A DNA stretch of 64,000 nucleotides from Rhabdothermincola salaria (GTDB lineage Bacteria; Actinomycetota; Acidimicrobiia; Acidimicrobiales; Acidimicrobilacustridaceae): positions 1,320,168 through 1,384,167 of the forward strand of contig NZ_JAJQXW010000001.1 in NCBI RefSeq assembly GCF_021246445.1, written 5' to 3'. Position numbers and translations under genes: made by a program. The notes below the pieces were generated by a model that searched no databases, was not told the origin of the DNA, and saw nothing but the letters and a program-made list of their open reading frames with translations. The first letter of the stretch is position 1, and each line of letters begins with the position of its first letter. Shown piece by piece: positions 1-19,040 of this stretch.

Positions 1-67
1 TGGCCTCCAGGAACTGACGGACGATGTTGCGGAGCTCTTCCTGCTCCTCGGAAAAGGCGAAGTTCAT
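1..67 (-). CDS. Acyl-CoA dehydrogenase family protein, N-terminus only (runs off window edge)
   Basis: Reverse strand reads MNFAFSEEQEELRNIVRQFLEA, a typical acyl-CoA dehydrogenase N-terminus. Confidence 0.75.
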   Translation of the reverse strand, partial: MNFAFSEEQEELRNIVRQFLEA

Positions 68-890: not shown

Positions 891-1496
891 ATGACGCTGC
901 TGCTCTCCGACACCGGCTGGGAGCTCCACAACGTGGTGGTGGGGCCCGTCGACAACAACGTGTACGTGCTGCGCTGCACCGAGACGGGCGACGCGCTGCT
1001 CATCGACGCCGCCAACGAGCACGACCGCCTGCTCGACCTGTGCCGCACCCTCGAGGTGCGCACCGTGGTGGAGACCCACGGCCACTGGGACCACATCCAG
1101 GCCATCCCCGAGATCCGCGACGCCGGCTACGAGGTCGGCGTGACCGCGGCCGACGCCGGGATGCTGCCCAGCTACGACTACCTGCTCGAGGACGACACCG
1201 TGTTCGACGTGGGCCGTCTGAAGCTGCGCACCATCCTCACGCCGGGCCACACGCCGGGTTCGATCTGCTTCAAGGTCGAGGGCACCCCCCTGCTCTTCAC
1301 CGGCGACACCCTGTTCCCGGGCGGGCCGGGCAACACCAGCTTCGAGCACAGCGACTTCGACACGATCATCGAGTCGATCGACCGGCGTCTCTTCACCCTC
1401 CCCGAGGACCTCATCGTCCTGCCCGGCCACGGCGACCGCACCACGATCGGCACCGAACGGCCTCACCTGCAGGAGTGGGTCGACCGGGGCTGGTGA
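891..1496 (+). CDS. MBL-fold metallo-hydrolase (glyoxalase II-like)
   Basis: THGHWDH, TPGHTPGS, FTGDTLF, PGHG motifs. Confidence 0.9.
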   Translation: MTLLLSDTGWELHNVVVGPVDNNVYVLRCTETGDALLIDAANEHDRLLDLCRTLEVRTVVETHGHWDHIQAIPEIRDAGYEVGVTAADAGMLPSYDYLLEDDTVFDVGRLKLRTILTPGHTPGSICFKVEGTPLLFTGDTLFPGGPGNTSFEHSDFDTIIESIDRRLFTLPEDLIVLPGHGDRTTIGTERPHLQEWVDRGW

Positions 1497-1602
1497 GCCG
1501 ACAGCTCTTCGCCGCCGAACCTCTGGTTCGGTGTCGCCGCTCGGTCGAGGTGAACGACACCTAGGATCGCCGTCCGTGCCTGTTCCTCGACGAGCTGCTC
1601 GC

Positions 1603-2478
1603 ATGCTGCGCGCGCTGCTGGTGGCCTCGACGGTCTTGATCGCCTCGGCGTGCGGGACCTCGGGCTCAGCTCAGGTCGAGGCGCCGGGGAGCGACCGCTC
1701 CCTGGTGCACCCCGATGAGCTCTGTGACGAGGCACTCGAGAGCGACGACACGGTGCTCGTCACGGCTGCCCACGTCGTCACCGACGGGCGACTCGGCGCG
1801 CTGTGCTTCGGCGAACCCGACGACACCCTCGTCGAGGCGTGGGACGAGCTCGTCGCCATCACCCCACCCGGTCAGCTCTCCGACCTCGCCGTCGTCGTCG
1901 GCTTCGTCGCGGACGAAGACGACGACAGCCAGACCCTCGCCTTCGTGAACGCCTTGGACTCGGAGGGCCTGGCGTTCCAGATGTCGATCAACCTGCCCGC
2001 CTTCGACGCCGACCGCGACGAGGCGTCGCTCACCCTGGCCCACGAGTTCACACACGTGTTCACGCAGACCCCCGACCAGCTCGACCGTTCGGTGGCCGAT
2101 CCTGCTGCCTGTGAGACCCACTTCAACGGAGACGGCTGCTATCGGCCGGGATCGCTCATGGCGGCGTGGATCGAGGAGTTCTGGTCGGACGAGGAGCTCG
2201 CCACGGTGGATGTCGACGCCGACCCGTACCCGGAAGACGGCGACGACCGCTGCGACGTCGACGACAGCTTCTTCGGCTCCTACGCGGCCACCAACCCCGA
2301 GGAGGACTTCGCCGAGGCGTTCAGCGCCTTCGTCTACCGGGTCGCGCCGCTCACCGCGGGACAGCGGACCAAGCTCGACTGGCTGGCCGGCCAGGCCGGA
2401 CTGGCGGAGTTCCGATCTCAGGCCCTCGACGCCGGTCTCGGGCCGCTCGAGAACACCTTCGAGGTCTGCGGGTCCTGA
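1603..2478 (+). CDS. Putative lipoprotein zinc metallopeptidase (zincin-like)
   Basis: Signal peptide with lipobox IASAC; HEFTH (HExxH) and YAATNPEEDFAE; start 1576 or 1603. Confidence 0.65.
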   Translation: MLRALLVASTVLIASACGTSGSAQVEAPGSDRSLVHPDELCDEALESDDTVLVTAAHVVTDGRLGALCFGEPDDTLVEAWDELVAITPPGQLSDLAVVVGFVADEDDDSQTLAFVNALDSEGLAFQMSINLPAFDADRDEASLTLAHEFTHVFTQTPDQLDRSVADPAACETHFNGDGCYRPGSLMAAWIEEFWSDEELATVDVDADPYPEDGDDRCDVDDSFFGSYAATNPEEDFAEAFSAFVYRVAPLTAGQRTKLDWLAGQAGLAEFRSQALDAGLGPLENTFEVCGS

Positions 2479-2520
2479 TCCCGGGGAGGGCCGCCACGCT
2501 CGGGGCGAGCCGACCGGCGG

Positions 2521-2550
2521 CGGAATTTCTCCTACGGCGATAGTGCGAAT
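2521..2550 (+). promoter_or_regulatory. Conserved suf upstream dyad motif, copy 1
   Basis: CGGAATTTCTCCTACGGCGATAGTGCGAAT; 28/30 identical to the copy at 8007-8036. Confidence 0.8.
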
Positions 2551-2575
2551 GCGGGGGGCCGCCTAGACTGGCCTC

Positions 2576-3321
<746 letters not shown>

Positions 3322-3331
<10 letters not shown>

Positions 3332-4572
3332 CCATCTCCGATCCCCTCGACACCGCCGTCGTCAAGGCCGACTTCCCCCTGCTGTCCCGCTCGGTGCACG
3401 GCAAGCCCATCGTCTACCTCGACTCGGCAGCCACCGCCCAGAAGCCGACCTTGGTGCTCGACGCCATGGACGCGTACTACCGGTCCATCAACGCCAACGT
3501 GCACCGCGGCGTGTACGCCATCGCCGAGGACGCCACCAACGCCATGGAGGGCGCCCGCGAGAAGGTGCGCCGCTTCATCGGAGCGCCGTCGGTCAACGAG
3601 ATCGTCTTCACCAAGAACGCCACCGAGTCGCTGAACCTGGTCGCCCAATCGTGGGGCCGGGCCAACCTGGCCGAGGGCGACGTGGTGGTGCTCACCCACA
3701 TGGAGCACCACGCCGACATCGTCCCCTGGCAGATGCTCGCCGCCGAGAAGGGTCTCGAGCTGCGCTGGATCCCCCTCGACGCCCAGGGCCGCCTCGACCT
3801 CACCGACCTCGACCGTCTCCTCGACGGCGCCAAGGTCCTCGGCGTCACCGCCATGTCCAACGTGCTCGGCACGCTGACCCCGATACCCCTCCTCACCGCC
3901 GCCGCCCGCGCCGCCGGCGCCATCAGCGTCGTCGACGCCTGCCAGTCGGTGCCCCACACCCCCACCGACGTGACCGCCATGGGCGCCGACTTCGTGGCCT
4001 TCTCCGGCCACAAGATGGTGGGCCCCACCGGCATCGGCGTGCTCTGGGGTCGCCTCGAGCTGCTCGAGGCCATGCCCCCCTTCCTCGGCGGCGGCGAGAT
4101 GATCCGCGACGTGCGCCTCGACGGCTTCACCACCAACGAGGTGCCCTGGAAGTTCGAGGCGGGCACCCCGCCGATCGCCGAGATCGTCGGCCTCGGTGCC
4201 GCGGTCGACTACCTCGAGGGTCTGGGCATGAGCGCCGTGCGCGAGCACGAGATCGCCCTCACGACCTACGCCCTGGCCACCTTCGCCGAGCGCTTCGGCG
4301 ACGACCTCGTCGTGCACGGGCCACCGGATCCCGCCGAGCGTGGGGGCGTGTTCAGCTTCGCCTACAAGGACCTGCACCCCCACGACATCTCCCAGGTCCT
4401 CGACCAGCACGCCGTGTGCGTCCGGGCCGGACACCACTGCGCCAAGCCGCTCATGCGCCTGATGGGCGTGGGGGCCACGGCGCGGGCGTCGGTGTACGTC
4501 TACAACGACACCACCGACATCGACGCCCTGTGCGACGCCCTCGACGCCGCCGGCGACTTCTTCGCCTGGTGA
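3322..4572 (+). CDS. sufS: Cysteine desulfurase SufS
   Basis: YLDSAATAQKP, SGHKM (PLP lysine), RAGHHCA. Confidence 0.95.
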
Positions 4573-5526: not shown

Positions 5527-6372
5527 TCAGGCCAGCGGATCGGCGAAGGGGTCGTCGAACATGCCACCGGGGCCGCCCGCTCCTGGGTGCATCGAGGGGT
5601 CGAGGACCCGGGCCTTGGGGACTGCGTCCGCCATCTCGGCCTCCTCCTCCTGGTACTCGGCGTAGCCGGTGCGCTCGAGCTCGTCGGCCAGCTCGGGACC
5701 GCCCGTGGCGATGATCCGCCCCTTGACCAGCACGTGCACGACATCGGGCTTCAGCTCGTCGAGCAGCCGCTTGTAGTGGGTGATGGCCAGCACGCCGAGG
5801 CCGAACTCCTCGGTGGCCGCCTCGACCCGTCGGGCGCACGCCCGCAGGGCGTCGACGTCGAGGCCGGAGTCGAGCTCGTCGAGCACGGCGAAGCGGGGCT
5901 TGAGCACCGCCAGCTGCAAGGTCTCGTTGCGCTTCTTCTCGCCGCCGGAGAGGTCGACGTTGAGCGCCCGGGTGTGCAGGCGCTCGGCGAAGCCGATGCG
6001 TTCGGCCTCGGCGGCGATCTCGGCCGGCACGACCGAGACGTCGTGCCCGGCGGCACCGCGCGACTCCATGAGCAGGTCCTGGAGACTCACGCCGGGCACC
6101 TCGACGGGGTACTGCATGGCCAGGAAGAGGCCGGCCTGGGCTCGCTTCCAGGTGGGCAGACCGAGCAGGTCGACGCCGCCGACGGTGACCGAGCCACCGG
6201 TCACGGTGTAGCCGGGCTTGCCCATGAGCACGTGCGACAGGGTGGACTTCCCCGAGCCGTTGGGTCCCATGACGGCGTGCACTTCACCGGCGCGCACGAC
6301 GAGGTCGATGCCGTTGAGGATCGGCTTGCCGTCGACCTCGGCGGTGAGGTTCTCGATACGGAGCTCTGCCAT
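5527..6372 (-). CDS. sufC: Fe-S cluster assembly ATPase SufC (copy 2, extended C-terminus)
   Basis: GPNGSGKST, FLAMQYP, LSGGEKKRNE, LDELDSGLD, ITHY. Confidence 0.93.
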   Translation of the reverse strand: MAELRIENLTAEVDGKPILNGIDLVVRAGEVHAVMGPNGSGKSTLSHVLMGKPGYTVTGGSVTVGGVDLLGLPTWKRAQAGLFLAMQYPVEVPGVSLQDLLMESRGAAGHDVSVVPAEIAAEAERIGFAERLHTRALNVDLSGGEKKRNETLQLAVLKPRFAVLDELDSGLDVDALRACARRVEAATEEFGLGVLAITHYKRLLDELKPDVVHVLVKGRIIATGGPELADELERTGYAEYQEEEAEMADAVPKARVLDPSMHPGAGGPGGMFDDPFADPLA

Positions 6373-6373
6373 G

Positions 6374-6688
6374 TCAGTCGATCTCCACGAAGACGTCGTC
6401 ACCGTCGACGGTGACGGTGTAGGTGGGCGTGGGCTTGGTGGCGGGCATCGAGCTGGGCTCGCCGGTGACGAGCGAGAAGCAGCTGCCGTGCTTCCAGCAC
6501 TCGATCTCCAGGCGGTCCGGGTCGACGTCGCCCTCGGCGAGCGAGATGTCCTGGTGGGTGCACCGGTCGCCGATGACGTACCAGTCGTCGCCCAGGCGGA
6601 CCACGGCGAGGCGGTGGCCGGCCACGTCGATGCGGCGGGCCTCGCCGTCGGGGACGTCGGTGACCGAGCAGAGGCGCTGGGCGCTCAT
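6374..6688 (-). CDS. Rieske-type [2Fe-2S] ferredoxin
   Basis: CTHQ...CWKHGSCF Rieske motif; usual position between sufD and sufC. Confidence 0.92.
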   Translation of the reverse strand: MSAQRLCSVTDVPDGEARRIDVAGHRLAVVRLGDDWYVIGDRCTHQDISLAEGDVDPDRLEIECWKHGSCFSLVTGEPSSMPATKPTPTYTVTVDGDDVFVEID

Positions 6689-7956
6689 GGCTGCTCCCGC
6701 CGGTCCAGGCGAGCCTCGATGGCGGCCTCGATGAGGGGTCGCACACCCGGCACCGGGAACTGCTCGAGGACCTCGTCGAAGAACCCGGCCACGATCAAGC
6801 GGTCGGCGATCTCGGTGGGCACGCCCCGGCTCTCGAGGTAGAAGCGCTGTTCCTCGTCGATGGGCCCGACGGTGGACGCATGGCTGCAGTGCACGTCGTT
6901 GTTCTCGATCTCGAGGTTGGGCACGGACTCCGCCCAGGCGTCCTCGGAGAGCTTGATGTTGCGGTTGGTCTGGAAGGCGTTGGTGCCCCGCGCCTCCTTC
7001 TCCACCCTGATGCGCCCGGTGTACACCGAGCGGGATTGGTCGCCCACGACGCCCTTGAACAGCAGGTTCGAGGTGGTGTCGGGGGCCACGTGGTCCTGGA
7101 AGGTGCGAAAGTCGAGTGTCTGGCTCCGTTCGCCGAAGTACACGGCCTGGAGGTTGCCGGTGGCTCCCCTGCCGACGAGCCCGCAGTCGGTGCGCACCCG
7201 GGCGTAGTCGCCACCGAGGCCGGCGTGCGAGCCGGTCAGCGTGGCGTCGGCGTCGGCCCGCCCCACCTGGGAGGTGATCTGCCAGACGCGTCCGGTGCGG
7301 TCCTGCACCTCGCCGTAGGACAGGCGGGCCGCCCGGGCCACGTCGAGCTCGACCACCGGGGCCACGAAGGCCGCCACGTCCTCGGACCCCTGCCACACGA
7401 CCACCTTGGCCTCGGCGTCCTCGCCGACGCGGACGACGAGCCGGGGGAACACCGCCGCGCCGTCCTGGTCGACCCAGTCGGCGATGACGATCGGCACATC
7501 GACGGTGAGCCCCCGCGGCACCGACACGAGCAGCGGCTCGGCCGTGCAGGCGTCGTTGAGCGCGGCGAACACGTCGATGGGATGCTCGGCGACCGCACCC
7601 AGAGCAGCCTCGGCGTCGGGGCCGTCGACCAACGGGCCCACATAGAGGCCCTTGGCCTCCCACGCGGGGTCGAGGTCGGCGCGGACGACGAAGCCGTTGC
7701 GCACCACGACGGTGGCGGCCCGATCGGGGACGGCGTCGAGCACGGCGGTCACCCCGGCCGGCGTGGCCGGGGCGGGGCTGTCGGTGGCCAGCTCCCACTG
7801 GTCGAGGTCGAGGTCGGCGATGCGGCTGTAGCGCCAGACCTCCTCCTCGGTGGACGGGAGAGTGGCGTCTCCCAGGAGTTCGACGGTGCGAGCCCGGCGC
7901 TCGTTCAGCCAGGCGGGGCCGCGGAGCTCGCGGGCGGCGGACGTCAGGCGGTTCAG
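6685..7956 (-). CDS. sufD: Fe-S cluster assembly protein SufD (probable CTG start at 7956)
   Basis: PNLEIENNDVHCSHASTVG and FYLESRG; frame open upstream of 7752 through LPSTEEEVWRYSRI; GAGGT SD 6 nt before CTG. Confidence 0.9.
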   Translation of the reverse strand: MNRLTSAARELRGPAWLNERRARTVELLGDATLPSTEEEVWRYSRIADLDLDQWELATDSPAPATPAGVTAVLDAVPDRAATVVVRNGFVVRADLDPAWEAKGLYVGPLVDGPDAEAALGAVAEHPIDVFAALNDACTAEPLLVSVPRGLTVDVPIVIADWVDQDGAAVFPRLVVRVGEDAEAKVVVWQGSEDVAAFVAPVVELDVARAARLSYGEVQDRTGRVWQITSQVGRADADATLTGSHAGLGGDYARVRTDCGLVGRGATGNLQAVYFGERSQTLDFRTFQDHVAPDTTSNLLFKGVVGDQSRSVYTGRIRVEKEARGTNAFQTNRNIKLSEDAWAESVPNLEIENNDVHCSHASTVGPIDEEQRFYLESRGVPTEIADRLIVAGFFDEVLEQFPVPGVRPLIEAAIEARLDRREQP

Positions 7957-8006
7957 GGCGATACCTCGGCGAAGGGGCGCTGGGGGCGCCGGCGGGCTGG
8001 GAACGA

Positions 8007-8036
8007 ATTCACACTACCGCCGTAGGAGAAATTCCG
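8007..8036 (-). promoter_or_regulatory. Conserved suf upstream dyad motif, copy 2
   Basis: Reverse complement CGGAATTTCTCCTACGGCGGTAGTGTGAAT upstream of sufD; contains TAGTGT -10-like hexamer. Confidence 0.8.
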
Positions 8037-8068
8037 GCCAGCCCGGACCGAGATCGGCGCCGCCAGGT

Positions 8069-8419
8069 TCAGCGGTCTCGGCGGAACCGGCCGAACAGGC
8101 GGGCCAGGCCCTTGCGCGATCCACGGGCCCGTTCCGCTTCCACCTCGGCGAGCACCGTGGGCCCGACGGCGTTCACGATGTCCTCGGCCGCGTCGAGCAG
8201 GGCCCCGATGTCCTCACCGACGGGTTCCGGGGGCGTGGCCGGGGTGACCAGGGTGCCGTGTCGCCAGTCCACGTCGACGAGGCGCGGCTCGTACTTGGCG
8301 CAGTTCGACGGGCACCGCCACGGTGCCTCGGGGGCCAGATCGAGGTTGCACTTCCGGACGGTGTCACCAGTCGCGTACGTCCGGCTCTCGAACTGCTTGC
8401 ACTCCTCACGCATGGGCAT
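8069..8419 (-). CDS. Hypothetical protein with C-X16-C-X11-C-X3-C motif
   Basis: 116-aa ORF with coding-like codon usage between sufB and sufD. Confidence 0.8.
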   Translation of the reverse strand: MPMREECKQFESRTYATGDTVRKCNLDLAPEAPWRCPSNCAKYEPRLVDVDWRHGTLVTPATPPEPVGEDIGALLDAAEDIVNAVGPTVLAEVEAERARGSRKGLARLFGRFRRDR

Positions 8420-8475
8420 GGGTCGAGTCTGCCTCGCGGACGAGCGTCGTAGATGTCAGGCGTCGGGGACCGGCG

Positions 8476-9879
8476 TCAGCCGACCGAGCCCTCCATCTGC
8501 AGCTCGATGAGGCGGCTCCACTCGACCGCGTACTCCATCGGGAGCGTGCGGGTGACGGGCTCGATGAAGCCGTTGACCACCATGCCCATGGCTTGCTCCT
8601 CGGAGAGGCCGCGGCTCATCAGGTAGAAGAGCTGCTCGTCGGCCACCTTGGACACCGTGGCCTCGTGGCCGACGATGGCGTCGCGAGAACCGACCTCCAT
8701 GTAGGGGAAGGTGTCCGAGACGGAATCGTCGTCGAGGATGAGGGCGTCGCACTGCACGTGGCTCTTGCACCCGTAGGCGTCGTCCTCCACCCGCACGAGC
8801 CCTCGGTACGAGGTGCGGCCGCCGTCCTTGGAGATGGACTTGGAGACGATCTTGGAGGTCGTCTCGGGCGCGGCGTGCACCATCTTGGCGCCGGCGTCCT
8901 GGTGCATGCCGTGGCCGGCGTAGGCCACCGACAGGACCTCACCGGAGGCCTTGGGCCCGACCATGTAGACCGCCGGGTACTTCATGGTGAGGCGACTGCC
9001 GATGTTTCCGTCGATCCACTCCATGTGGCCCTCGGTCTCGACCCGGGCCCGCTTGGTCACCAGGTTGAAGACGTTGTTCGACCAGTTCTGGATGGTCGTG
9101 TAGGTGACCCGGGCGCTGGGCTTCACGACGATCTCGACCACTGCGGAGTGCAGGGAGTCCGTGGTGTAGGTGGGTGCCGAGCACCCCTCGATGTAGTGCA
9201 CCGAGCTGCCCTCGTCGGCGATGATGAGAGTGCGTTCGAACTGGCCCATGTTCTCGGCGTTGATGCGGAAGTAGGCCTGCAGCGGCATCTCGACGTGCAC
9301 GCCGGGCGGCACGTAGATGAACGACCCACCGGACCACACCGCCGAGTTCAACGCCGCGAACTTGTTGTCGTTCTTGGGGATCACGGTGCCGAAGTAGGCC
9401 CGCACGATCTCGGGGTACTCGCGCAGCGCGGTGTCCATGTCGGTGAAGATGACGCCCTGGGCCTCGAGGTCCTCGCGGTTCTTGTGGTACACGACCTCGG
9501 ACTCGTACTGGGCGGTGACCCCGGCCAGGTACTTGCGCTCGGCCTCGGGGATGCCCAGCTTCTCGTAGGTCTGCTTGACCGAATCGGGCAGCTCGTCCCA
9601 CGCGTCGACCTGATGGTCGGTGGGCTTGATGTAGTAGAAGATGTCGTCGAAGTAGATCTCCGACATGTCGCCGCCCCAGTTGGGCATCGGGCGCCGCAGG
9701 AAGTGCTGGTAGGACTTCATGCGGTAGTCGCGCATCCAGTCCGGTTCGCCCTTCATCCACGACATCTCGCGGATGATGTCCTCGGTCAGCCCCTTCTTGG
9801 GCTTGAAGACGTAGTCCTCTTCGTCGGACCAACCCAGCTTGTAGCGGCCGAGGTCGAGATCGAGATCGGTGGTGGCCAT
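8476..9879 (-). CDS. sufB: Fe-S cluster assembly protein SufB
   Basis: [37 protein letters not shown]. Confidence 0.97.
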
Positions 9880-12142: not shown

Positions 12143-12637
12143 CTAGATGGTGTAGCGGCCGTAGCCGCCACGGAAGAACAGCAGCGGCCCGCCCTCGTGG
12201 CGCACCTCGAGGTCGTGCACGGCCCCGATGACGACGTAGTGGTCGCCGGCCTCGACGACGTCGGCCACGGTGCAGTCGACGTAGGCGAGGACCCCGTCGA
12301 TGATGGGCGAACCGTTGCCCGACTTCCGCCAACCGACCTCGGCGAACTTGTCGGCGGCGCTCGACGCGAAGACCCGGCAGACGTCCTCTTGGTCCTCGGC
12401 CAGGATGTTGACGCAGAAGGCACCGGACTGCTGGATCTTGGGCCACGTGCTCGACTGCTTCCCCGGGCAGAACAGCACCTGCGGGGGCTCGAGCGACAGC
12501 GAGGCGAACGATCCGACGGCGAGGCCGACCGGCGTGTCCTCGTACATCGAGGAGATGACCGTCACCCCGGTCGGGAAGTGCCCGAGGACCTGACGGAACT
12601 TGGCCGAATCGAAGCTGGGGACGTGTTCTGGGCTCAC
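12143..12637 (-). CDS. Flavin reductase family protein
   Basis: FRQVLGHFPTGVTVI, SFASLSLEPP, AGDH. Confidence 0.92.
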   Translation of the reverse strand: MSPEHVPSFDSAKFRQVLGHFPTGVTVISSMYEDTPVGLAVGSFASLSLEPPQVLFCPGKQSSTWPKIQQSGAFCVNILAEDQEDVCRVFASSAADKFAEVGWRKSGNGSPIIDGVLAYVDCTVADVVEAGDHYVVIGAVHDLEVRHEGGPLLFFRGGYGRYTI

Positions 12638-12649
12638 AAGGAGGCGAGT

Positions 12650-13504
12650 CTAGGCCCCCACCGATGCCCGCTCGACGGAGACGGTGAGCCCCTCGGCGGC
12701 GGCGAACACCTTCGGGACCCCCCGTTCGCGCGCCCTCTCGGCTGCGGCGAGCTCCAGCAGATCGACGCTCTCGTCGTCGTGGCCGGGGTCGTGGTGGAAC
12801 AGCGCCAGCGCCCGCACGCCCGCCTCCGCCGCCACGTGCACGGCGTAGTCGACGGTGCAGTGGCCCCAGTGCGCCCGCAGGACGAACTCGTCGGGCGTGT
12901 ACTGGGCGTCGTGGATCAAGAGGTCGGCACCCTGGCACAGCGAGAGCACGGCCGGAGCGATGTGGCTGGGGTCGTCGACCGGCTGTTGGTGGTCGCTGAT
13001 GTAGACGACGGCGACGCCGTCACGCTCGATGCGGTACCCGAACGTCTCGCCGGTGTGGGGCACCAGGGCGGCGGTGACCGACGCCCCGGCGATCTGGTGG
13101 GTGCCGGCCGGGAGGGTGACGAACACGATGTCGCCGGAGAGCTCGTGGGCCCGTACCGGGAAGAACGGCGGGGCCATGAGCTGGTCGAAGGCCTCACCGA
13201 AGCTGCGGGAGCCGTCGGCCGGACCGTAGACGGTCAGCTCGGCCCCCGGCGAGAGCAGCGGAGGGCAGAAGGGCAGGCCCTGGACGTGGTCCCAGTGCAG
13301 GTGGGTGACGAGGGCGTGGGCCCGCATCATCTCGCCCTCGGCCTGGTCGAGACCGAAGAAGCGCAGACCGGTGCCCAGGTCGAGCAGGATCGGATCGGCA
13401 CCGGGAGCCCGCAGCACCACGCAGGACGTGTTGCCGCCGTACCGACGGTTCTCGTCGCACGAGCAGGGAGTGGAACCTCGGACTCCGTAGAACGTCACGT
13501 CCAA
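12650..13504 (-). CDS. MBL-fold metallo-hydrolase (GVRGS/YGGNTSC/WGH subfamily)
   Basis: FYGVRGSTP, YGGNTSC, THLHWDHVQG, HDAQY, WGH, FHHDP; TTG start with GGGGAG SD. Confidence 0.88.
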   Translation of the reverse strand: MDVTFYGVRGSTPCSCDENRRYGGNTSCVVLRAPGADPILLDLGTGLRFFGLDQAEGEMMRAHALVTHLHWDHVQGLPFCPPLLSPGAELTVYGPADGSRSFGEAFDQLMAPPFFPVRAHELSGDIVFVTLPAGTHQIAGASVTAALVPHTGETFGYRIERDGVAVVYISDHQQPVDDPSHIAPAVLSLCQGADLLIHDAQYTPDEFVLRAHWGHCTVDYAVHVAAEAGVRALALFHHDPGHDDESVDLLELAAAERARERGVPKVFAAAEGLTVSVERASVGA

Positions 13505-13570
13505 ACGAGTAACTCCCCCTCGCGAGTGCCCGGCCGAGGGTAAACCACCGTGTCGAGCGCGTGAACCCCG

Positions 13571-13586
13571 AGTGACAAGTCTCACA
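13571..13586. promoter_or_regulatory. CRP/GlxR-type binding site
   Basis: AGTGA-CAAGTC-TCACA matches 9/10 of TGTGA-N6-TCACA in a divergent intergenic region. Confidence 0.65.
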
Positions 13587-13705
13587 TCGACTCCGGGACC
13601 GGTAGCTTCGCGCACCATGCAGGGGGACACGATCCGCACCGGACGAGCCGGGGGCGCCGGCGGCCACCCCAGGGGCACCCGCGCCGGGCGCGAGAGGGAG
13701 CCAGG

Positions 13706-15184
13706 ATGAGCGACGACGCACCAGCCGCCGTCTCGGCGGAGACGACCCCGCCGGACCTGCCCGACGACGGCCTGGTGGTGGTCGTCAAGCGGGACTGCCC
13801 CACCTGCCTGCTGGTCGTCCCCGTCCTCGAGCAGTTGGCCGACGACGGGGAGCTCACCGTGCTCGTCCAGGACGACACCGAGCCCTTCGCCCATCTCCCC
13901 CGCTGCTCGGCCGACGACGACCTCGACGTCTCGTGGGCGCTGCAGGTGACCACCGTGCCGACCCTCGTGCGGCGCCAGGGCGGTCAGGAGGTGGCCCGCA
14001 CCGAGGGGTGGCTCCGCGAGGAGTGGCAGGGCCTCACCGGGCGGTCGGACCTCGGCCCGCAGCTCCCCGACTTCCGTCCGGGGTGCGGCTCGCTCAGCGA
14101 GGAGCCCGCCCGATGGGCTCGTCTCCAGGTCCGCCACGAGGGCGGCCGGCTCCGCTCCCGCCGCATCCAGATCTCCGCCCTCGACGACGAGATGGAGTCG
14201 CTGTTCGAGCGGGGCTTCACCGATGGCCTCCCCGTGGTGCCACCCACGCCCGAGCGCGTGCTGCGCATGCTCGACGCCACCTCCCGGTCGCCCGACGACC
14301 TGGTGGCCGTGGTACCACCCGACCTGGTGGAGTGCACGGTCGAGAAGGTGGCGATCAACGCGGTGATGGCGGGCTGCAAGCCCGAGTACCTCCCCGTGGT
14401 GCTGACCGCCGTCGAAGCGGCCTGCACCGACGAGTTCAACATCCACGGGGTCCTGGCCACGACCTGGTTCGCCGGGCCGCTCGTGGTCGTCAACGGCCCG
14501 ATGGCGCGAGCCATCGGCATGAACAGCGGCATCAACGCGCTCGGCCAGGGCAACCGGGCCAACGCCACCATCGGGCGAGCCCTGCAGCTGGTGATCCGCA
14601 ACGTGGGCGGCGGCCGGCCGGGCGGCATCGATCGGGCCACGCTCGGCAACCCCGGCAAGTACACCTTCTGCTTCGCCGAGGACGAGGAGGGGTCCCCCTG
14701 GGAGTCCCTGGCCACCGAACGCGGCGTCGCCGAGGACCGCTCGGCGGTCACGCTCTTCGCCGCCGAGGGCGTGCGCGGGCTCGCCGACCAGGACTCCCGC
14801 ACCCCGGAATCGCTGGCCCGCACGTTCGCCGCCTGCCTGCGCACCGTGGCCCACCCCCGGGCCCTCGTCGCCTTCGACGCCATGGTGGTCGTGAGCCCGG
14901 AGCACGGTCGGGTCTTCGCCGAGGCCGGGTGGAGCAAGGCCCGCCTGCACCGGGAGCTCGCCGAGCTGTTGATGACCGACACCGACTCCGTCCTCAAGGG
15001 CCTCGACGGCATGGCCCCGGGCCTCGACCCCTCCCTCGCCGGCCTCCGGCTGCCCAAGTTCCGCGACGGCGGGCTGCTCATCACCTACGCCGGCGGCGGG
15101 GCGGGCATGTTCAGTGCCATCATCGGCTCCTGGGCCTCTGGCGCCATCGGCAGCCAACCCGTCACCTTGGAGGTGCGTCCGTGA
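13706..15184 (+). CDS. Thioredoxin-like domain fused to the uncharacterised UGSC-associated domain
   Basis: N-terminal KRDCPTC; PGCGS; GFTDGLPVVPPT, AINAVMAGC and GNRANATIGRA; stop overlaps next start. Confidence 0.8.
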   Translation: MSDDAPAAVSAETTPPDLPDDGLVVVVKRDCPTCLLVVPVLEQLADDGELTVLVQDDTEPFAHLPRCSADDDLDVSWALQVTTVPTLVRRQGGQEVARTEGWLREEWQGLTGRSDLGPQLPDFRPGCGSLSEEPARWARLQVRHEGGRLRSRRIQISALDDEMESLFERGFTDGLPVVPPTPERVLRMLDATSRSPDDLVAVVPPDLVECTVEKVAINAVMAGCKPEYLPVVLTAVEAACTDEFNIHGVLATTWFAGPLVVVNGPMARAIGMNSGINALGQGNRANATIGRALQLVIRNVGGGRPGGIDRATLGNPGKYTFCFAEDEEGSPWESLATERGVAEDRSAVTLFAAEGVRGLADQDSRTPESLARTFAACLRTVAHPRALVAFDAMVVVSPEHGRVFAEAGWSKARLHRELAELLMTDTDSVLKGLDGMAPGLDPSLAGLRLPKFRDGGLLITYAGGGAGMFSAIIGSWASGAIGSQPVTLEVRP

Positions 15185-15714
15185 CCGACCACGAGGGACT
15201 GACCGTGCTCGACCCCACCGGCGAGCTCCGGCCCACCCCGCGGGAGCGGGCCCCGCGGGTCGCCTCCCTCGAGGGTCGCCGAGTGGGCCTGCTCGACATC
15301 ACCAAGGCACGCGGCGACGTCTTCCTCGATCGGGTCGAGGAGCACCTGGCCCGCCGGGGGGCGGTGGTGAGCCGCTACCGCAAGCCCACCTTCACCAAGC
15401 CGGCGCCCGTCGACCTGCGCCAGGAGATCGCCATGCAGTGCGAGGTGGTCATCGAGGCGCTCGCCGACTGAGGGAGCTGCACGTCGTGCAGTGTGCACGA
15501 CATCGTGGATCTCGAGAGCCGGGGCGTGGTGGGCGTGTTCGTCGCCTCCACCGAGTTCGTCGACGCCGCCGCCACCCAGTCGTCGGCCCGGGGGGCCGAC
15601 CCGGCTGCGGTCTTCGTCGCCCATCCCATCCAGGACCGCACCGACGACGAGATCCGGGCCCTGGCCGACGACGCCGTCGACGCCATCGTGGCCGCCCTCA
15701 CCACCGAGTCCTGA
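15181..15714 (+). CDS. UGSC-family selenoprotein (Sec at TGA 15469-15471; 177 aa)
   Basis: Reads EALAD-U-GSCTSCSVHD straight through the TGA; two listed ORFs are in one frame; hairpin follows. Confidence 0.85.
15480..15507 (+). promoter_or_regulatory. Putative bacterial SECIS hairpin
   Basis: GTCGTGCA-GTG-TGCACGAC perfect 8-bp stem (15483-15501); loop starts with G and is separated from the UGA by 19 nt. Confidence 0.7.
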
Positions 15715-15788
15715 CCGGCCCGGCCCTCCCGGGCCGCCCGGGCGGCGACGCGGACGCCGAGGGATCGGCGACCCGGTGTGGCTCTGCG

Positions 15789-16730
15789 CTACGACGGCAG
15801 GGTGAGACGCCCGTCGGCGGTGAAGGTCGCCAGGCGATCTCGCACCAACGACTCGGCGGCGCGGGTCGCCGAGTCGTCGGTCCACTCGTGGGACGCAGCG
15901 GAGCCGTCGGCGGGGCCGACATCGGCCTCGGTGTCGGCTCGACCGTCGCAGAGGGCCCGCCACTGCGACGGGTCGGGCCGCTGACCGGCCCGCAGGGCGT
16001 CGAGCAGGCGGGCCCGACCCTGGCGGAACGACCCCTCGAAGCGGCTCTGGGGCCGGCTGACCGCATGGGAGCCGAGCGCGGGGTCGGGGTCGGGACGGCC
16101 GGCCTGCCACCACCGGCAGGTCGACGCGACCGGGCAGCGTTCGCAGGCCGGCGACCGCTTGGTGCACACGGTGGCGCCGAGGTCGAGGAGGGCCTGGTTC
16201 CACTGCCAGCCCTCCCCTTCGGGCACCAGCTCGTCGGCGGCCGCCTGGGCCTGGCGGGCGGTGAGCGCCGTCCCGGCCGTGCGGGCCAGGATGCGACCCA
16301 CGTTGGTGTCCACCACGGCGACGTCGCGCTCGAAGGCGAAGGCCAACACTGCCCGAGCCGTGTAGGGCCCGACCCCCGGGAGAGCCAGGAGGGCGGGGAG
16401 GTCGTCGGGGAAGGTGCCGTCGTGGTCGTCGAGCACGGCGGCGGCACACCCGTGGAGGGCCACCGCCCGGCGGTTGTAGCCGAGCCCGGCCCATTCCTCG
16501 ACGACCGCGCCCGACCCGGCGGCGACGCAGCTCTCGACGTCGGGGAAGCGGTCCAGGAAGCGGCGCCAACGGGGCACCACCCGATCGACCTGGGTCTGTT
16601 GCAGCATCACCTCGCTGACCAGCACGGCCCAGGGGTCCCGGGTGCGACGCCATGGGAGGTCGCGGCGGGTGGCCTCCCACCAGCCGAGGACCTCGTGGCT
16701 CGCCTCGGCCTGCGACCGACTCCCGCTCAT
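15789..16730 (-). CDS. mutY: A/G-specific adenine glycosylase (short MutY-like)
   Basis: VSEVMLQQTQV, WAGLGYNRRA, LPGVGPYTA, VDTNV, C-X6-C-X2-C-X5-C. Confidence 0.9.
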   Translation of the reverse strand: MSGSRSQAEASHEVLGWWEATRRDLPWRRTRDPWAVLVSEVMLQQTQVDRVVPRWRRFLDRFPDVESCVAAGSGAVVEEWAGLGYNRRAVALHGCAAAVLDDHDGTFPDDLPALLALPGVGPYTARAVLAFAFERDVAVVDTNVGRILARTAGTALTARQAQAAADELVPEGEGWQWNQALLDLGATVCTKRSPACERCPVASTCRWWQAGRPDPDPALGSHAVSRPQSRFEGSFRQGRARLLDALRAGQRPDPSQWRALCDGRADTEADVGPADGSAASHEWTDDSATRAAESLVRDRLATFTADGRLTLPS

Positions 16731-16810
16731 GGCCACGAGTGTGGCCCAGACCGCCGGTCCGACGGCTCGGACCGACGGCTCGGGCCGACCGCGGCCGCTC
16801 GTCTCGGCGC

Positions 16811-17326
16811 CTACTCGTCGGCGAAGACGTCGTCGCCGTAGGGCAGGCCGCGCGCGGGGGCGAACGCCCGCTTCCAGACGATGATCTTGCGCCGGAAGAA
16901 GCAGACCTCTTCGGAGCGCTGGTTGATGCCCTTGGTCTCGACGGTGACGATCCCGCGCTCGCCGTCGGAGGTCTCCTTCTTGGCCAGCACCTTGGTGACG
17001 GCGTAGATGGTGTCGCCGTGGAACGTGGGCTTGGCGTGCTTGAGCGTCTCGACCTCGAGGTTGGCGATGGCGGCTCCGCTCACGTCGGGCACGCTCATGC
17101 CCAACACCAGCGAGTACACGAGGTTGCCGACCACCAGCGGCTTGCCCACCGGGGACTCGTTCTCCGCATACCAGTTGTTGGTGTGCGTGGGGTGGTGGTT
17201 CATGGTGATCATGCAGAAGAGGTGGTCGTCGGCCTCGGTGATGGTCTTGCCGGGCCAGTGGCGGTACACGTCGCCGACCTCGAAGTCCTCGAAGTGACGG
17301 CCGAAGGGACGATCGATCACGGTCAC
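16811..17326 (-). CDS. MaoC-family dehydratase, probable mesaconyl-CoA hydratase
   Basis: FGRHFEDFEVGDVYRHWPGKTITEADDHLFC; GAGGAG SD before GTG; context with mcd and mcl. Confidence 0.8.
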   Translation of the reverse strand: MTVIDRPFGRHFEDFEVGDVYRHWPGKTITEADDHLFCMITMNHHPTHTNNWYAENESPVGKPLVVGNLVYSLVLGMSVPDVSGAAIANLEVETLKHAKPTFHGDTIYAVTKVLAKKETSDGERGIVTVETKGINQRSEEVCFFRRKIIVWKRAFAPARGLPYGDDVFADE

Positions 17327-17400
17327 GGCAGGCTCCTCACGACAAGGCGGAGGCCGTCCGCCGCGGGAGGCGGCGAAGGCTCCGCACGATCTCGTCGTCC

Positions 17401-17419
17401 AACCTACCCCTGAGTAACC
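17401..17419. promoter_or_regulatory. Shared motif AACCTACCC-N2-GRGTAACC, copy 1 (divergent maoC/mcd promoters)
   Basis: 16/19 identical to 22025-22043; includes -10-like hexamers on both strands. Confidence 0.6.
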
Positions 17420-17426
17420 TCGGGGG

Positions 17427-19040
17427 ATGACCGTGATCGACCCGGACCTCACCGCCGCCGCAGCCGTCACCGAGACCGCCCACGGCATCGTCGAGACCTG
17501 CACCCGCCACCTGGCCGCGGCCGGCGACCCGGACGCCCACCAGGTCGTCACCTACGACCTGGCCCACGCCGCCGCTGCCGTCGAGACGGGCCGGGCCATG
17601 CTCACCTACGGGGCCAAGGGCGACCTCGAGGCCCGCATCGCCTGCGCGTTCGTGGCCGACGCGGTCGCCGAGCTGGCGCCCAAGCTCTTCGGTCGCGAGG
17701 CGCAGTGGGGCATCGAACCGGGAGCGCTCGACGGCACCCGTGACTTCGTGGCGGCCTATCGGGCCCCGGAGTTCCTGGCCGCGCTGGCCGACACCGCCGG
17801 ACCCCGCCACCTCGACAGCGACTTCGAGATGGTGCAGGACACGTTCCGGCGCTTCGCCACCGAGAAGATCGCCCCTGTCGCCGAGCACATCCATCGCGAG
17901 AACGCCGACATCCCCGAGGACCTCATCGAGGGCCTGGCCGAGATGGGTGGCTTCGGGTTGTCCGTACCGGTCGAGTACGACGGCTTCTCCGAGGGTGGCG
18001 AGAGCGAGTACATCGGCATGGTCGTGGCCACCGAGGAGCTGTCCAAGGCGTCGCTCGGGGCCGGCGGGTCGCTCATCACCCGCCCCGAGATCCTCACCCG
18101 GGCCCTGCTGGCCGGCGGCACCGAGGCCCAGAAGGCCCACTGGCTGCCCAAGCTGGCCTCCGCCGAGGTCATGGCCGCCGTCGCCGTCACCGAGCCCGAC
18201 TACGGCTCCGACGTCGCCGGCGTGAAGTGCACCGCCACCCCCACCGAGGGAGGCTGGCTGCTCAACGGGGTGAAGACCTGGTGCACGTTCGGCGCCCGCG
18301 CCGACGTGCTCATGCTGCTGGCCCGCACCAACCCCGACAAGTCCCTCACCCACAAGGGTCTGTCGATGTTCGTGGTGCCCAAGCCGCGCGGCGAGGGCCA
18401 CGGCTTCGCGTTCGCCCAGGAGGCCGGCGCCGACGGCGGGGCCCCCGGCGGCGGGAAGATGGAGGGTCGGGCCATCGACACCATCGGCTACCGGGGCATG
18501 CACTCCTACGAGATCGCCCTCGAGGACTGGTTCGTGGCGGCCGACAACCAGGTCGGCGGCGACGACGGCCTGGGCAAGGGCTTCTACTACCAGATGGCCG
18601 GCTTCGAGAACGGCCGGCTGCAGACCGCCGCCCGTGCCGTCGGGGTCATGCAGGCCGCCTACGAGGACGCCCACCAGTACGCCCTCGACCGCGTCGTCTT
18701 CGGCCAGCCCATCGCCGAGTACCAGCTCACGCGGGCCAAGCTCGGTCGCATGGTGGTGCTCATCCAGGCCGGTCGCCAGTTCGGCTACGAGGTGGCCAGG
18801 CTCATGGCCGAGGGCCGCGGCCAGCTCGAAGCGTCGATGGTGAAGGCGTACGTCTGCAAGGCCGCCGAGTGGGTCACCCGTGAGGCCATGCAGATCCACG
18901 GTGGCTTCGGCTATGCCGAGGAGTACCCGGTGAGCCGGTACTTCGTCGACGCCCGCGTGCTGTCCATCTTCGAAGGGGCCGACGAGACCCTGTGCCTCAA
19001 GGTGATCGCCCGTCGCATGATGGACAACGCCAAGAGCTGA
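17427..19040 (+). CDS. Acyl-CoA dehydrogenase, probable (2S)-methylsuccinyl-CoA dehydrogenase
   Basis: 537 aa with N-terminal extension; GSLITRPEI, TEPDYGSD, IGYRGM, IFEGA. Confidence 0.8.
   Translation: MTVIDPDLTAAAAVTETAHGIVETCTRHLAAAGDPDAHQVVTYDLAHAAAAVETGRAMLTYGAKGDLEARIACAFVADAVAELAPKLFGREAQWGIEPGALDGTRDFVAAYRAPEFLAALADTAGPRHLDSDFEMVQDTFRRFATEKIAPVAEHIHRENADIPEDLIEGLAEMGGFGLSVPVEYDGFSEGGESEYIGMVVATEELSKASLGAGGSLITRPEILTRALLAGGTEAQKAHWLPKLASAEVMAAVAVTEPDYGSDVAGVKCTATPTEGGWLLNGVKTWCTFGARADVLMLLARTNPDKSLTHKGLSMFVVPKPRGEGHGFAFAQEAGADGGAPGGGKMEGRAIDTIGYRGMHSYEIALEDWFVAADNQVGGDDGLGKGFYYQMAGFENGRLQTAARAVGVMQAAYEDAHQYALDRVVFGQPIAEYQLTRAKLGRMVVLIQAGRQFGYEVARLMAEGRGQLEASMVKAYVCKAAEWVTREAMQIHGGFGYAEEYPVSRYFVDARVLSIFEGADETLCLKVIARRMMDNAKS

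Follow-up and report, generated by a model that had tools for sequence, protein, structure and literature searches.

An overlapping gene pair of Rhabdothermincola salaria, encoding a UGSC-family selenoprotein and a thioredoxin-fold fusion protein, as the probable two subunits of a selenium-dependent redox enzyme

A UGSC-family selenoprotein gene of Rhabdothermincola salaria (Actinomycetota; Acidimicrobiia) and the 492-residue protein gene that it overlaps probably encode the two subunits of one selenium-dependent redox enzyme. The pair lies in a stretch of 64,000 nucleotides, referred to here as the window (assembly GCF_021246445.1, contig NZ_JAJQXW010000001.1, positions 1,320,168 to 1,384,167 of the forward strand), and coordinates are those of the window unless another sequence is named. 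The downstream gene adds a member to UGSC, a known selenoprotein family of orphan function, and it is almost certainly a genuine selenoprotein gene. A physical complex of the two proteins is likely; that the pair acts as a thiol- or selenol-driven reductase is slightly favoured, and we infer both the redox nature of the enzyme and the direction of electron flow. At the level of the system, an obligate selenoenzyme of two subunits is a reading well supported by comparative evidence. With one constant partner, and a predicted interface containing the selenocysteine (Sec, U) residue, the orphan selenoprotein becomes part of a defined system of two proteins, and the partner draws attention to a very large protein family for which neither Pfam nor NCBIfam has a model. 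If the reading is correct, this enzyme would be a main reason for the retention of selenocysteine machinery in many aerobic bacteria of freshwater, soil and sea. The features concerned are the following.

13706..15184, + strand: gene for the putative large subunit, 492 residues, from ATG 13706 to TGA 15182-15184, with a thioredoxin-fold domain, a linker with an invariant Cys and a domain of ~340 residues
13742..14044, + strand: thioredoxin-fold domain (residues ~13-113), from VIA-align and Foldseek, with CPTC at 13796-13807
14078..14092, + strand: PGCGS linker motif with Cys127, invariant in partners fused to a thioredoxin-fold domain
14153..15181, + strand: unnamed domain of ~340 residues (residues ~150-492), from conserved columns, with no Pfam or NCBIfam family
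15169..15173, + strand: GGAGG ribosome-binding site, 7 nt 5' of GTG 15181, from the sequence
15181..15714, + strand: UGSC-family selenoprotein gene, 177 residues, U97-G-S-C100-T-S-C103, from scores with the UGSC profiles
15469..15471, + strand: probable selenocysteine codon TGA, from TGA in 71 of 71 loci, Cys forms and the Sec machinery of the genome
15483..15501, + strand: predicted hairpin resembling a selenocysteine insertion sequence (SECIS), an 8-bp stem of 15483-15490 with 15494-15501 and a GUG loop, from the minimum-free-energy fold and comparative pairing

The first-pass annotation of this DNA had proposed that a list of open reading frames (ORFs) breaks one gene in two, and this was borne out when the coordinates were read again. 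The frame starts at GTG 15181, passes through ...IEALAD to an in-frame TGA at 15469-15471, continues as GSCTSCSVHD... and stays open up to the stop TGA at 15712-15714, which places U at residue 97 of 177. The ORF list, made with translation table 11, cuts the gene in two, with one part ending at 15471 and the other listed as a 73-residue ORF at 15493-15714. The read-through protein matches the NCBIfam model NF041046, 'UGSC family (seleno)protein', with 155.9 bits (cut-off 125; residues 31-174; profile positions 1-147 of 147) and Pfam PF24696 with 150.6 bits (cut-off 25; residues 8-174; profile positions 1-171 of 172). As the TGA is spanned by one single hidden Markov model (HMM) match with each of these, the split reading frame is more than chance. 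The gene is 'hidden' only towards a table-11 ORF caller, the UGSC family having curated models in both NCBIfam and Pfam. A lenient Pfam scan of UGSC proteins otherwise returned noise alone (DUF116, E 0.028), a sequence-profile search of the PDB with the family gave no match below E 0.3, and a Cys-form UGSC protein had neither a usable match nor a stored model in the ESM Atlas. The GTG start overlaps the stop of the 492-residue gene by four bases (GTGA), and that gene carries the CPTC, PGCGS and DGLPVVPPT motifs, both as annotated earlier.

The machinery for Sec incorporation is complete in the genome of R. salaria (3.9 Mb in 7 contigs, 97.8% complete), where the search for four components that had been suggested recovered them all. 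The matches to selD (364.8 bits), selA (402.8 bits) and selB (260.2 bits) are each above the curated cut-off, with selB adjoining selA, and tRNA-Sec is found both by Rfam RF01852 (70.6 bits; gathering score 47) and as an ARAGORN call of SeC with anticodon tca. Comparative evidence comes from a set of 80 related genomic loci found via the partner gene. The Sec column is TGA in all 71 of these loci that cover it, and sequence is conserved among homologues on both sides of that column. A database search for UGSC proteins gave 1,702 relatives, of which many are gene calls of 97-109 residues spanning about half of the query and few are full length. Four short calls were aligned and all terminate exactly at ...EALAD, and 13 aligned full-length relatives have Cys (8), W or R (3) or a garbled sequence (2) at the Sec column. 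The homologue alignment thus has TGA or Cys at the column with both flanks conserved, in agreement with the earlier suggestion.

A conserved stem-loop just 3' of the UGA is predicted to be a bacterial SECIS-like element. It was obtained by minimum-free-energy folding of the 62 nt starting at the UGA; the stem begins 11 nt past the UGA and the loop begins 19 nt past it, with a weaker lower stem that widens the hairpin to 15472-15513. In folding energy the hairpin does not surpass shuffled sequences (z-score 0.12, not significant alone), as might be expected in DNA so rich in G+C. Nevertheless, 95.4% of the stem cells in 71 distinct sequences are standard pairs, versus 4-57% after a shift of the 3' side by 1-3 columns, and none of 500 shuffles reached the observed pairing. 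Three stem pairs have changed on both sides (G-C to A-U, C-G to U-A). Third codon positions are at least 90% conserved within the stem and are variable in the ten codons upstream of it. An Rfam scan of nt 15300-15700 (E<=10) gave matches at chance level alone and no SECIS-type family.

UGSC itself has been known since 2005-2008. The family (NF041046, PF24696) corresponds to the 'UGSC-containing protein' of the Sargasso Sea and Global Ocean Sampling (GOS) surveys, and the downstream gene is a member with no family-level difference: U-G-S-C stands at the Sec/Cys column and Sec forms dominate, as in the 71 loci here. The available text of the GOS account gives 255 Sec and 21 Cys sequences for UGSC, and places it among the most abundant selenoprotein families of aquatic metagenomes, with first rank in several samples of non-marine origin (PMC2398784). 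In the portion available of a 2026 review the family is still without a function (PMC13188914). Full-text literature searches found no functional study or experiment on UGSC, and the earlier description of UGSC proteins as selenoproteins that were predicted by computation and have been given no function agrees with what these two accounts present. Neither describes, in the parts available, a near-obligate pairing of UGSC with the large domain (PMC2398784, PMC13188914). A 'UGSC/Unknown_1 fusion' is mentioned in the accessible part of PMC2398784, in which Unknown_1 may or may not be the large domain.

The 492-residue partner is composed of a thioredoxin-fold domain, a linker and the large domain, with CPTC at residues 31-34 (nt 13796-13807), PGCGS at 125-129 (14078-14092) and DGLPVVPPT at 173-181 (14222-14248). 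It has at least 8000 homologues of near-equal length, none of which carries a precomputed Pfam domain, and 5,879 related representatives of 50%-identity clusters at E<=1e-3 (1,480 at E<=1e-30). An AlphaFold2 model of the full protein is confident (predicted local distance difference test (pLDDT) 94.3, predicted template modelling score (pTM) 0.90). In this model the N-terminal domain has a thioredoxin fold, which upholds the fused thioredoxin-like domain proposed at first: the best VIA-align match is thioredoxin 6z7o_A (Z 9.8, root-mean-square deviation (rmsd) 2.2, 91 residues aligned, model range 13-128), chains of the ResA/CcmG/DsbE type follow at Z 9.4-9.7, and Foldseek matches thioredoxins at E ~6e-4. 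Thioredoxin sequence models stay below threshold on this domain (TIGR01068, 17.5 versus 96.8 bits; TraF PF13728, 21.4 versus 23 bits). The domain therefore has the fold and the CxxC of a thioredoxin yet is no canonical thioredoxin. The names 'thioredoxin' and 'TraF' on database relatives stem from sub-threshold matches of the thioredoxin-fold domain alone, and the label 'TraF conjugal transfer protein', with its 21.4 bits against a cut-off of 23, was rejected. The domain shares its fold (Z 9.4-9.8) and CxxC motif (CPTC, in 64 of 66 sequences) with thioredoxins and oxidoreductases of the TlpA/ResA/CcmG type; unlike a free thioredoxin, it falls below every sequence-model cut-off and is fused to the 340-residue domain, a fusion which argues for a dedicated module. 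Among 66 aligned partners fused to a thioredoxin-fold domain, Cys is conserved at C31 (64), C34 (64), C127 (66), C224 (65) and C322 (63). Cys127 is absent from stand-alone forms of the large domain, whose start comes later. An ORF of 835 residues that runs antisense through the partner gene (12650-15157, - strand) was rejected as a high-G+C artefact.

The large domain has no named family. There was no Pfam or NCBIfam match even at E<=1 to 10, lenient Pfam scanning giving noise only (SDA1_HEAT, E 0.14); stand-alone members of the family had no match in an NCBIfam scan; a sequence-profile search of the PDB gave no match below E 0.3; and an ESM Atlas search returned only unnamed clusters from the same family. 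Its invariant or near-invariant residues are D173-G-L-P, P179-P-T181, A222-G-C224, G264-P, N273, R284-A-N286, G290-R291, C322, E325, E327, W332 and H400, a set that looks like an enzyme active site when judged from sequence conservation. The corresponding codons lie at 14222-14248 for DGLPVVPPT, 14375-14377 for the Cys of AGC224 and 14669-14671 for C322. The domain was folded separately, since fold searches with the full-length model matched the thioredoxin domain only, and the model is again confident (pLDDT 88.8, pTM 0.89). The top Foldseek match is a class I fumarate hydratase (5l2r_A, E 3.3e-4, template modelling (TM) score 0.27, rmsd 16 A). VIA-align against 48,161 chains gave a best Z of 5.4, none reaching 8, so that no solved structure is clearly related to the domain. 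Class I (Fe-S) fumarate hydratases and tartrate dehydratases rank best among structural matches (5l2r_A; 6mso_A, Z 4.7; 7xky_A, Z 4.6; ~170 residues), with rmsd values of 5-16 A, identities of 8-10% and scores in the background range of the tool, and with no sequence-profile link. We see in this likeness a common sub-arrangement rather than homology. Five proteins of 709-741 residues (P0298, P0299, P0322, P0341 and P0367) contain the large domain twice in tandem and have no Pfam match.

The two families occur together across genomes. The partner, at 54-76% identity, is carried by metagenome-assembled genomes (MAGs) labelled Acidimicrobiia, Alpha-, Beta-, Gamma- and Deltaproteobacteria, Myxococcota, Acidobacteria, Nitrospirales, Chloroflexota, Spirochaetales and others, and within the same range by Pseudonocardia lutea. 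UGSC is encoded immediately downstream of the partner in 72 of the 80 loci, across many phyla, the loci coming from Actinomycetota, Pseudomonadota, Myxococcota, Acidobacteriota, Nitrospirales, Chloroflexota and others; in four of the eight misses the contig ends no more than 177 nt from the partner gene, and one of these shows the first 32 UGSC residues at its very end. The four-base overlap of the window is the most frequent junction between the two genes (25 of the 72 loci when starts are set by a crude first-start rule, which makes many of the other genes too long). Of 201 genomes sampled evenly from the phylum of the window, 14 have the large domain, at 18 loci; a UGSC-like gene is adjacent at 16 of these, and UGSC is adjacent or fused at every one of the 17 loci, out of 18, that were tested. 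The motifs at those 16 loci are U/C-GSC-TSC, CGSCTAY, CGSCSAS, UGSCTTG, CGSCSTR and U-DGC or U-PGC; only U/C-x-x-C is kept across these variants, the third Cys being missing in CGSCTAY, CGSCSAS and UGSCTTG. The other two loci, L112 and L113, belong to one genus and have a long open frame with no adjacent UGSC-like gene. In L112 this frame (1453-3171, - strand; 572 residues from the first start codon) has an N-terminus that matches Pfam UGSC with 30.5 bits (cut-off 25) and is fused to a large domain that retains both conserved cysteines, and a gene resembling FAD-dependent oxidoreductases adjoins it. L113 probably holds the same fusion.

Fusions in both orders were also found when 58 family representatives were scanned with Pfam, 48 of which had been picked for a length of at least 409 residues, so that fractions are not representative of the family. 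UGSC precedes the large domain in two complete fusions (P0358 and P0379) and in 13 ORFs that open with the post-TGA half (3 of the 13 below the Pfam cut-off). The large domain comes before UGSC in P0302 (by NCBIfam), P0339 and P0355, each ending in the pre-TGA half of UGSC. The remaining N-terminal modules are of the AhpC-TSA/Redoxin type (6 above the cut-off, 2 below), and in P0294 the catalytic chain of ferredoxin:thioredoxin reductase (FTR) is fused to the large domain (PF02943, 76.3 bits). All accessory modules fused to the large domain are thus thiol-disulfide modules, namely thioredoxin-like, AhpC-TSA/Redoxin and FTR catalytic subunit.

R. salaria itself carries a second, paralogous pair at another place in its genome (G000:C2 ~720540-722159, - strand; locus L100 ~2041-3660), consisting of a stand-alone large domain, with no thioredoxin domain, and a UGSC-like gene 3 nt further on. 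The large domain is 44% identical over residues 163-411, and the UGSC-like gene has Cys at the Sec position and has lost the third Cys (AAD-C-GSC-TAY); a gene of the short-chain dehydrogenase/reductase type comes next on the same strand. An Acidobacteria MAG has two copies of UGSC, the second of which lies ~3 kb further downstream and is cut by the contig end (L022:8856-9197).

Structure prediction is consistent with direct binding. The 492-residue protein of the window (50-row alignment) was co-folded with P0122, a natural Cys-form UGSC homologue (68% identical, 11-row alignment), and the check that had been proposed for the two proteins was passed with this stand-in. The interaction prediction score from aligned errors (ipSAE) was 0.78, 0.80 and 0.80 in three runs (median 0.80), against 0.00 for the best of three controls, giving a verdict of 'supports binding'. 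In calibration, 58 of 80 solved complexes attained this mark, as did 2 of 110 mismatched pairs, a scale that is only roughly valid with self-made alignments. The three runs have at least 94% of contacts in common, a partner pLDDT of at least 89 and 129-130 interface contacts. A pass produced by memory of a known complex is unlikely for this model, because neither family has a solved relative by sequence. Confident contacts on the partner fall at residues 149-158, 179-182, 204-221, 242-253, 295-310 and 477-483. Those on the UGSC side (P0122 numbering; add 2 for the window) fall at 3-14, which includes the invariant D-P-T, at 67-72 (K-P-T), and at 95-97 and 99-101, the last two holding the Sec-equivalent Cys, the G-S and the second cysteine of CxxC. 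The closest contacts join PPT of the partner (179-182) to UGSC residues 6-8 (window 8-10), beside the invariant D-P-T, so that the most conserved motif of each family would form the interface. The first-pass idea of a two-subunit Sec/thiol redox enzyme accordingly gains its two-subunit part from adjacency, from fusions in both orders and from the predicted complex, and its redox part is a matter of interpretation.

The nearest enzymological precedent may be selenoprotein B of the D-proline and glycine reductases. Enzymes of the PrdB/GrdB type pair a small subunit, in which a beta-strand leads into the Sec motif U-x-x-C, with a larger one from a separate gene, and complete their cycle by means of reductants of the thioredoxin type. 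The UGSC pair resembles these selenoprotein B-type subunits (PrdB, GrdB/F/H; PF07355 GRDB; partners PrdA and GrdE) in combining a small Sec subunit with a larger separate one. There are differences: the C-terminal 340 residues of the large partner have no Pfam match at E<=10, and hence none to the PrdA/GrdE proprotein family, and, unlike the PrdA/GrdE-type reductases, the pair gave no evidence for a pyruvoyl group and occurs mostly in aerobes. Short GRDB-family proteins of Actinomycetota read ...LTP-U-PLC... followed by IE..GIPTV and can be aligned by eye, gapless and U to U, with the ...LAD-U-GSC...LE.RG.V.V. of UGSC. The GRDB Pfam model (PF07355) gave no match at E<=10 on three UGSC proteins, and hhalign of the UGSC profile with a single GRDB-like sequence gave none. 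That UGSC works like protein B is plausible by analogy; its membership in the GRDB family is not established. R. salaria also has a candidate selenoprotein of the short GRDB type (G000:C1:775525-775953 and onward; locus L119 ~1501-2100; PF07355, 24.4 bits), with an in-frame TGA at ~1936-1938 of L119 within ...VVVLTPV-U-PLC-TRTVCVL.... PF07355 matches in 32 of the 201 genomes of the phylum sample, a tally that includes the unpublished genome G148, on which no other statement here depends. Similar U-P-x-C genes occur in further genomes of this sample, and 20 of them were read.

A mechanism can be outlined on this basis, its exact order of redox steps being tentative and rather doubtful. SelB and tRNA-Sec would decode UGA 15469 as selenocysteine under direction of the hairpin at 15483-15501. 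The large domain may bind a substrate near Cys224 and Cys322, and Sec97 would attack or reduce it, ending as a Sec97-Cys100 selenenylsulfide. The fused thioredoxin-fold domain (C31/C34) could re-reduce the selenenylsulfide by thiol-disulfide exchange, possibly via the linker Cys127, and would be recharged in turn by the thioredoxin reductase of the cell. In relatives, an FTR-like or Redoxin-like module may replace the thioredoxin-fold domain in the re-reduction. Such logic would be shared, by analogy, with selenoprotein B of the D-proline and glycine reductases. Chances are about even that UGSC is in general the selenium-bearing small subunit of a widespread two-subunit enzyme with thioredoxin- or ferredoxin-fed chemistry, not a free thioredoxin-like protein.

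Several observations weigh against a two-subunit selenium-dependent redox enzyme. The co-folded partner was the Cys-form stand-in P0122, 68% identical, in place of the Sec protein of the window, and no contact fell on the thioredoxin-fold domain, all being at partner residues >=149; with this domain outside the predicted interface, the proposed relay is not captured by the co-fold. Four loci (L046, L067, L077 and L084) lack UGSC in the 1 kb or more of sequence available downstream of the partner gene (4 of the 76 loci with room for it). The UGSC-family domain of L112 reads MGTS, with neither Sec nor Cys at the motif, so that a redox role of this position is not universal. The connection with PrdB/GrdB-type selenoproteins is weak: profile alignment by hhalign of 83 UGSC with 20 short GRDB-family sequences gave E 0.0025 with a probability of 12% over 85 columns around the Sec motif, and set the two Sec positions three residues apart. 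Finally, neighbouring genes offer no clue to a substrate, being varied in the 80 loci with no neighbour beyond the pair widely conserved.

Against this background, four other explanations can be considered. It is very improbable that TGA 15469 is a true stop, leaving a 96-residue protein, perhaps a separate 73-residue protein from GTG 15493, and no selenocysteine. The table-11 ORF list gives exactly these pieces, public gene calls include many 'proteins' of ~97-106 residues ending in ...EALAD, and the hairpin folds no better than shuffles (z 0.12); these points are outweighed by the single HMM match across the TGA, by Cys-form homologues that are continuous at the column, by a TGA that is retained at 71 of 71 loci, between conserved stretches of coding sequence and together with a hairpin that is conserved too, and by the full Sec machinery of the genome. 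A free UGSC, adjacent to the upstream protein without forming a stable complex and transiently reducing it among other clients as a thioredoxin-like selenoprotein, is improbable as well, if less so than a true stop. In the accessible text of PMC2398784, UGSC is seen as a probable redox protein of thioredoxin-like fold, and a partner without adjacent UGSC at four loci fits such a role. The fusions in both orders argue otherwise, as does the large predicted interface, which has 129-130 contacts, passed its controls and is built from the most conserved motifs of both proteins.

Two further explanations accept the linked pair and differ over its chemistry. The large domain may catalyse a non-redox reaction, such as that of a hydro-lyase or isomerase, with a possible metal or Fe-S site at the interface, UGSC serving as a structural or catalytic-nucleophile subunit; this is unlikely, to a slightly lesser degree than a free UGSC. 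It would accommodate the best, though weak, fold matches, which are to class I (Fe-S) fumarate hydratases (TM 0.27; VIA-align Z 4.6-4.7 over ~170 residues), the similarity of U-x-x-C-x-x-C spacing to cluster-binding motifs, and the fused lineage without Sec or Cys in its UGSC domain. However, the fold matches are under the level at which the tool trusts a shared fold, the third Cys is not conserved in UGSC variants and U/C-x-x-C alone is, and every fused accessory domain is a thiol-disulfide module. The pair may alternatively handle selenium or sulfur itself, for example in the reduction or traffic of selenium species feeding SelD, or act as a dedicated antioxidant or peroxidase-type system made of thioredoxin- or peroxiredoxin-like parts, with no external substrate to reduce in either case. 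This is the least unlikely of the four, and still held to be improbable. It could explain why selA directly follows the pair in 8 of 80 loci (e.g. L050), with selB then in 6, why some family members have AhpC-TSA/Redoxin-type N-terminal domains and why catabolic neighbours are not conserved. The selA-selB adjacency would, however, be accounted for just as well by UGSC being a main selenoprotein in the genomes concerned, and the AhpC-TSA/Redoxin models also match generic TlpA/ResA-like reductants of thioredoxin fold, which are the best structural matches here. Moreover, the enzyme-like invariant polar set of the large domain (D173, R284, N286, R291, E325, E327 and H400) favours chemistry on a substrate, and a two-subunit, selenium-dependent redox enzyme is the reading preferred here.

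The commonest neighbours of the pair in the 80 loci are genes for flavin reductase (13), alpha/beta hydrolase (9), MutY-like glycosylase (8), family III CoA-transferase (8) and selA (8), neighbour-gene clusters being inflated by spurious high-G+C ORFs. Where selA lies directly downstream of the pair it is followed by selB at six of the eight loci; in L050 both are on the same strand as the pair (5974-7389, selA with 524 bits, and 7335-9284), and such loci are mostly from Betaproteobacteria MAGs. A promoter and terminator scan of 13300-16000 found none. In the window, a flavin-reductase-like gene of 164 residues (12143-12637, - strand) lies ~1 kb upstream of the pair, and a homologue (PF01613, 161 bits) is near the pair in 13 of the 80 loci; its recurrence may come from gene order that relatives have in common, and not from a link in function. 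Other neighbouring genes were judged by eye from their translations. On the - strand, 12650-13480 has the look of a hydrolase of the metallo-beta-lactamase fold (HxHxDH motif), 15789-16736 of a MutY/HhH-GPD glycosylase and 16811-17551 of a MaoC-type dehydratase, and on the + strand 17427-19040 resembles an acyl-CoA dehydrogenase.

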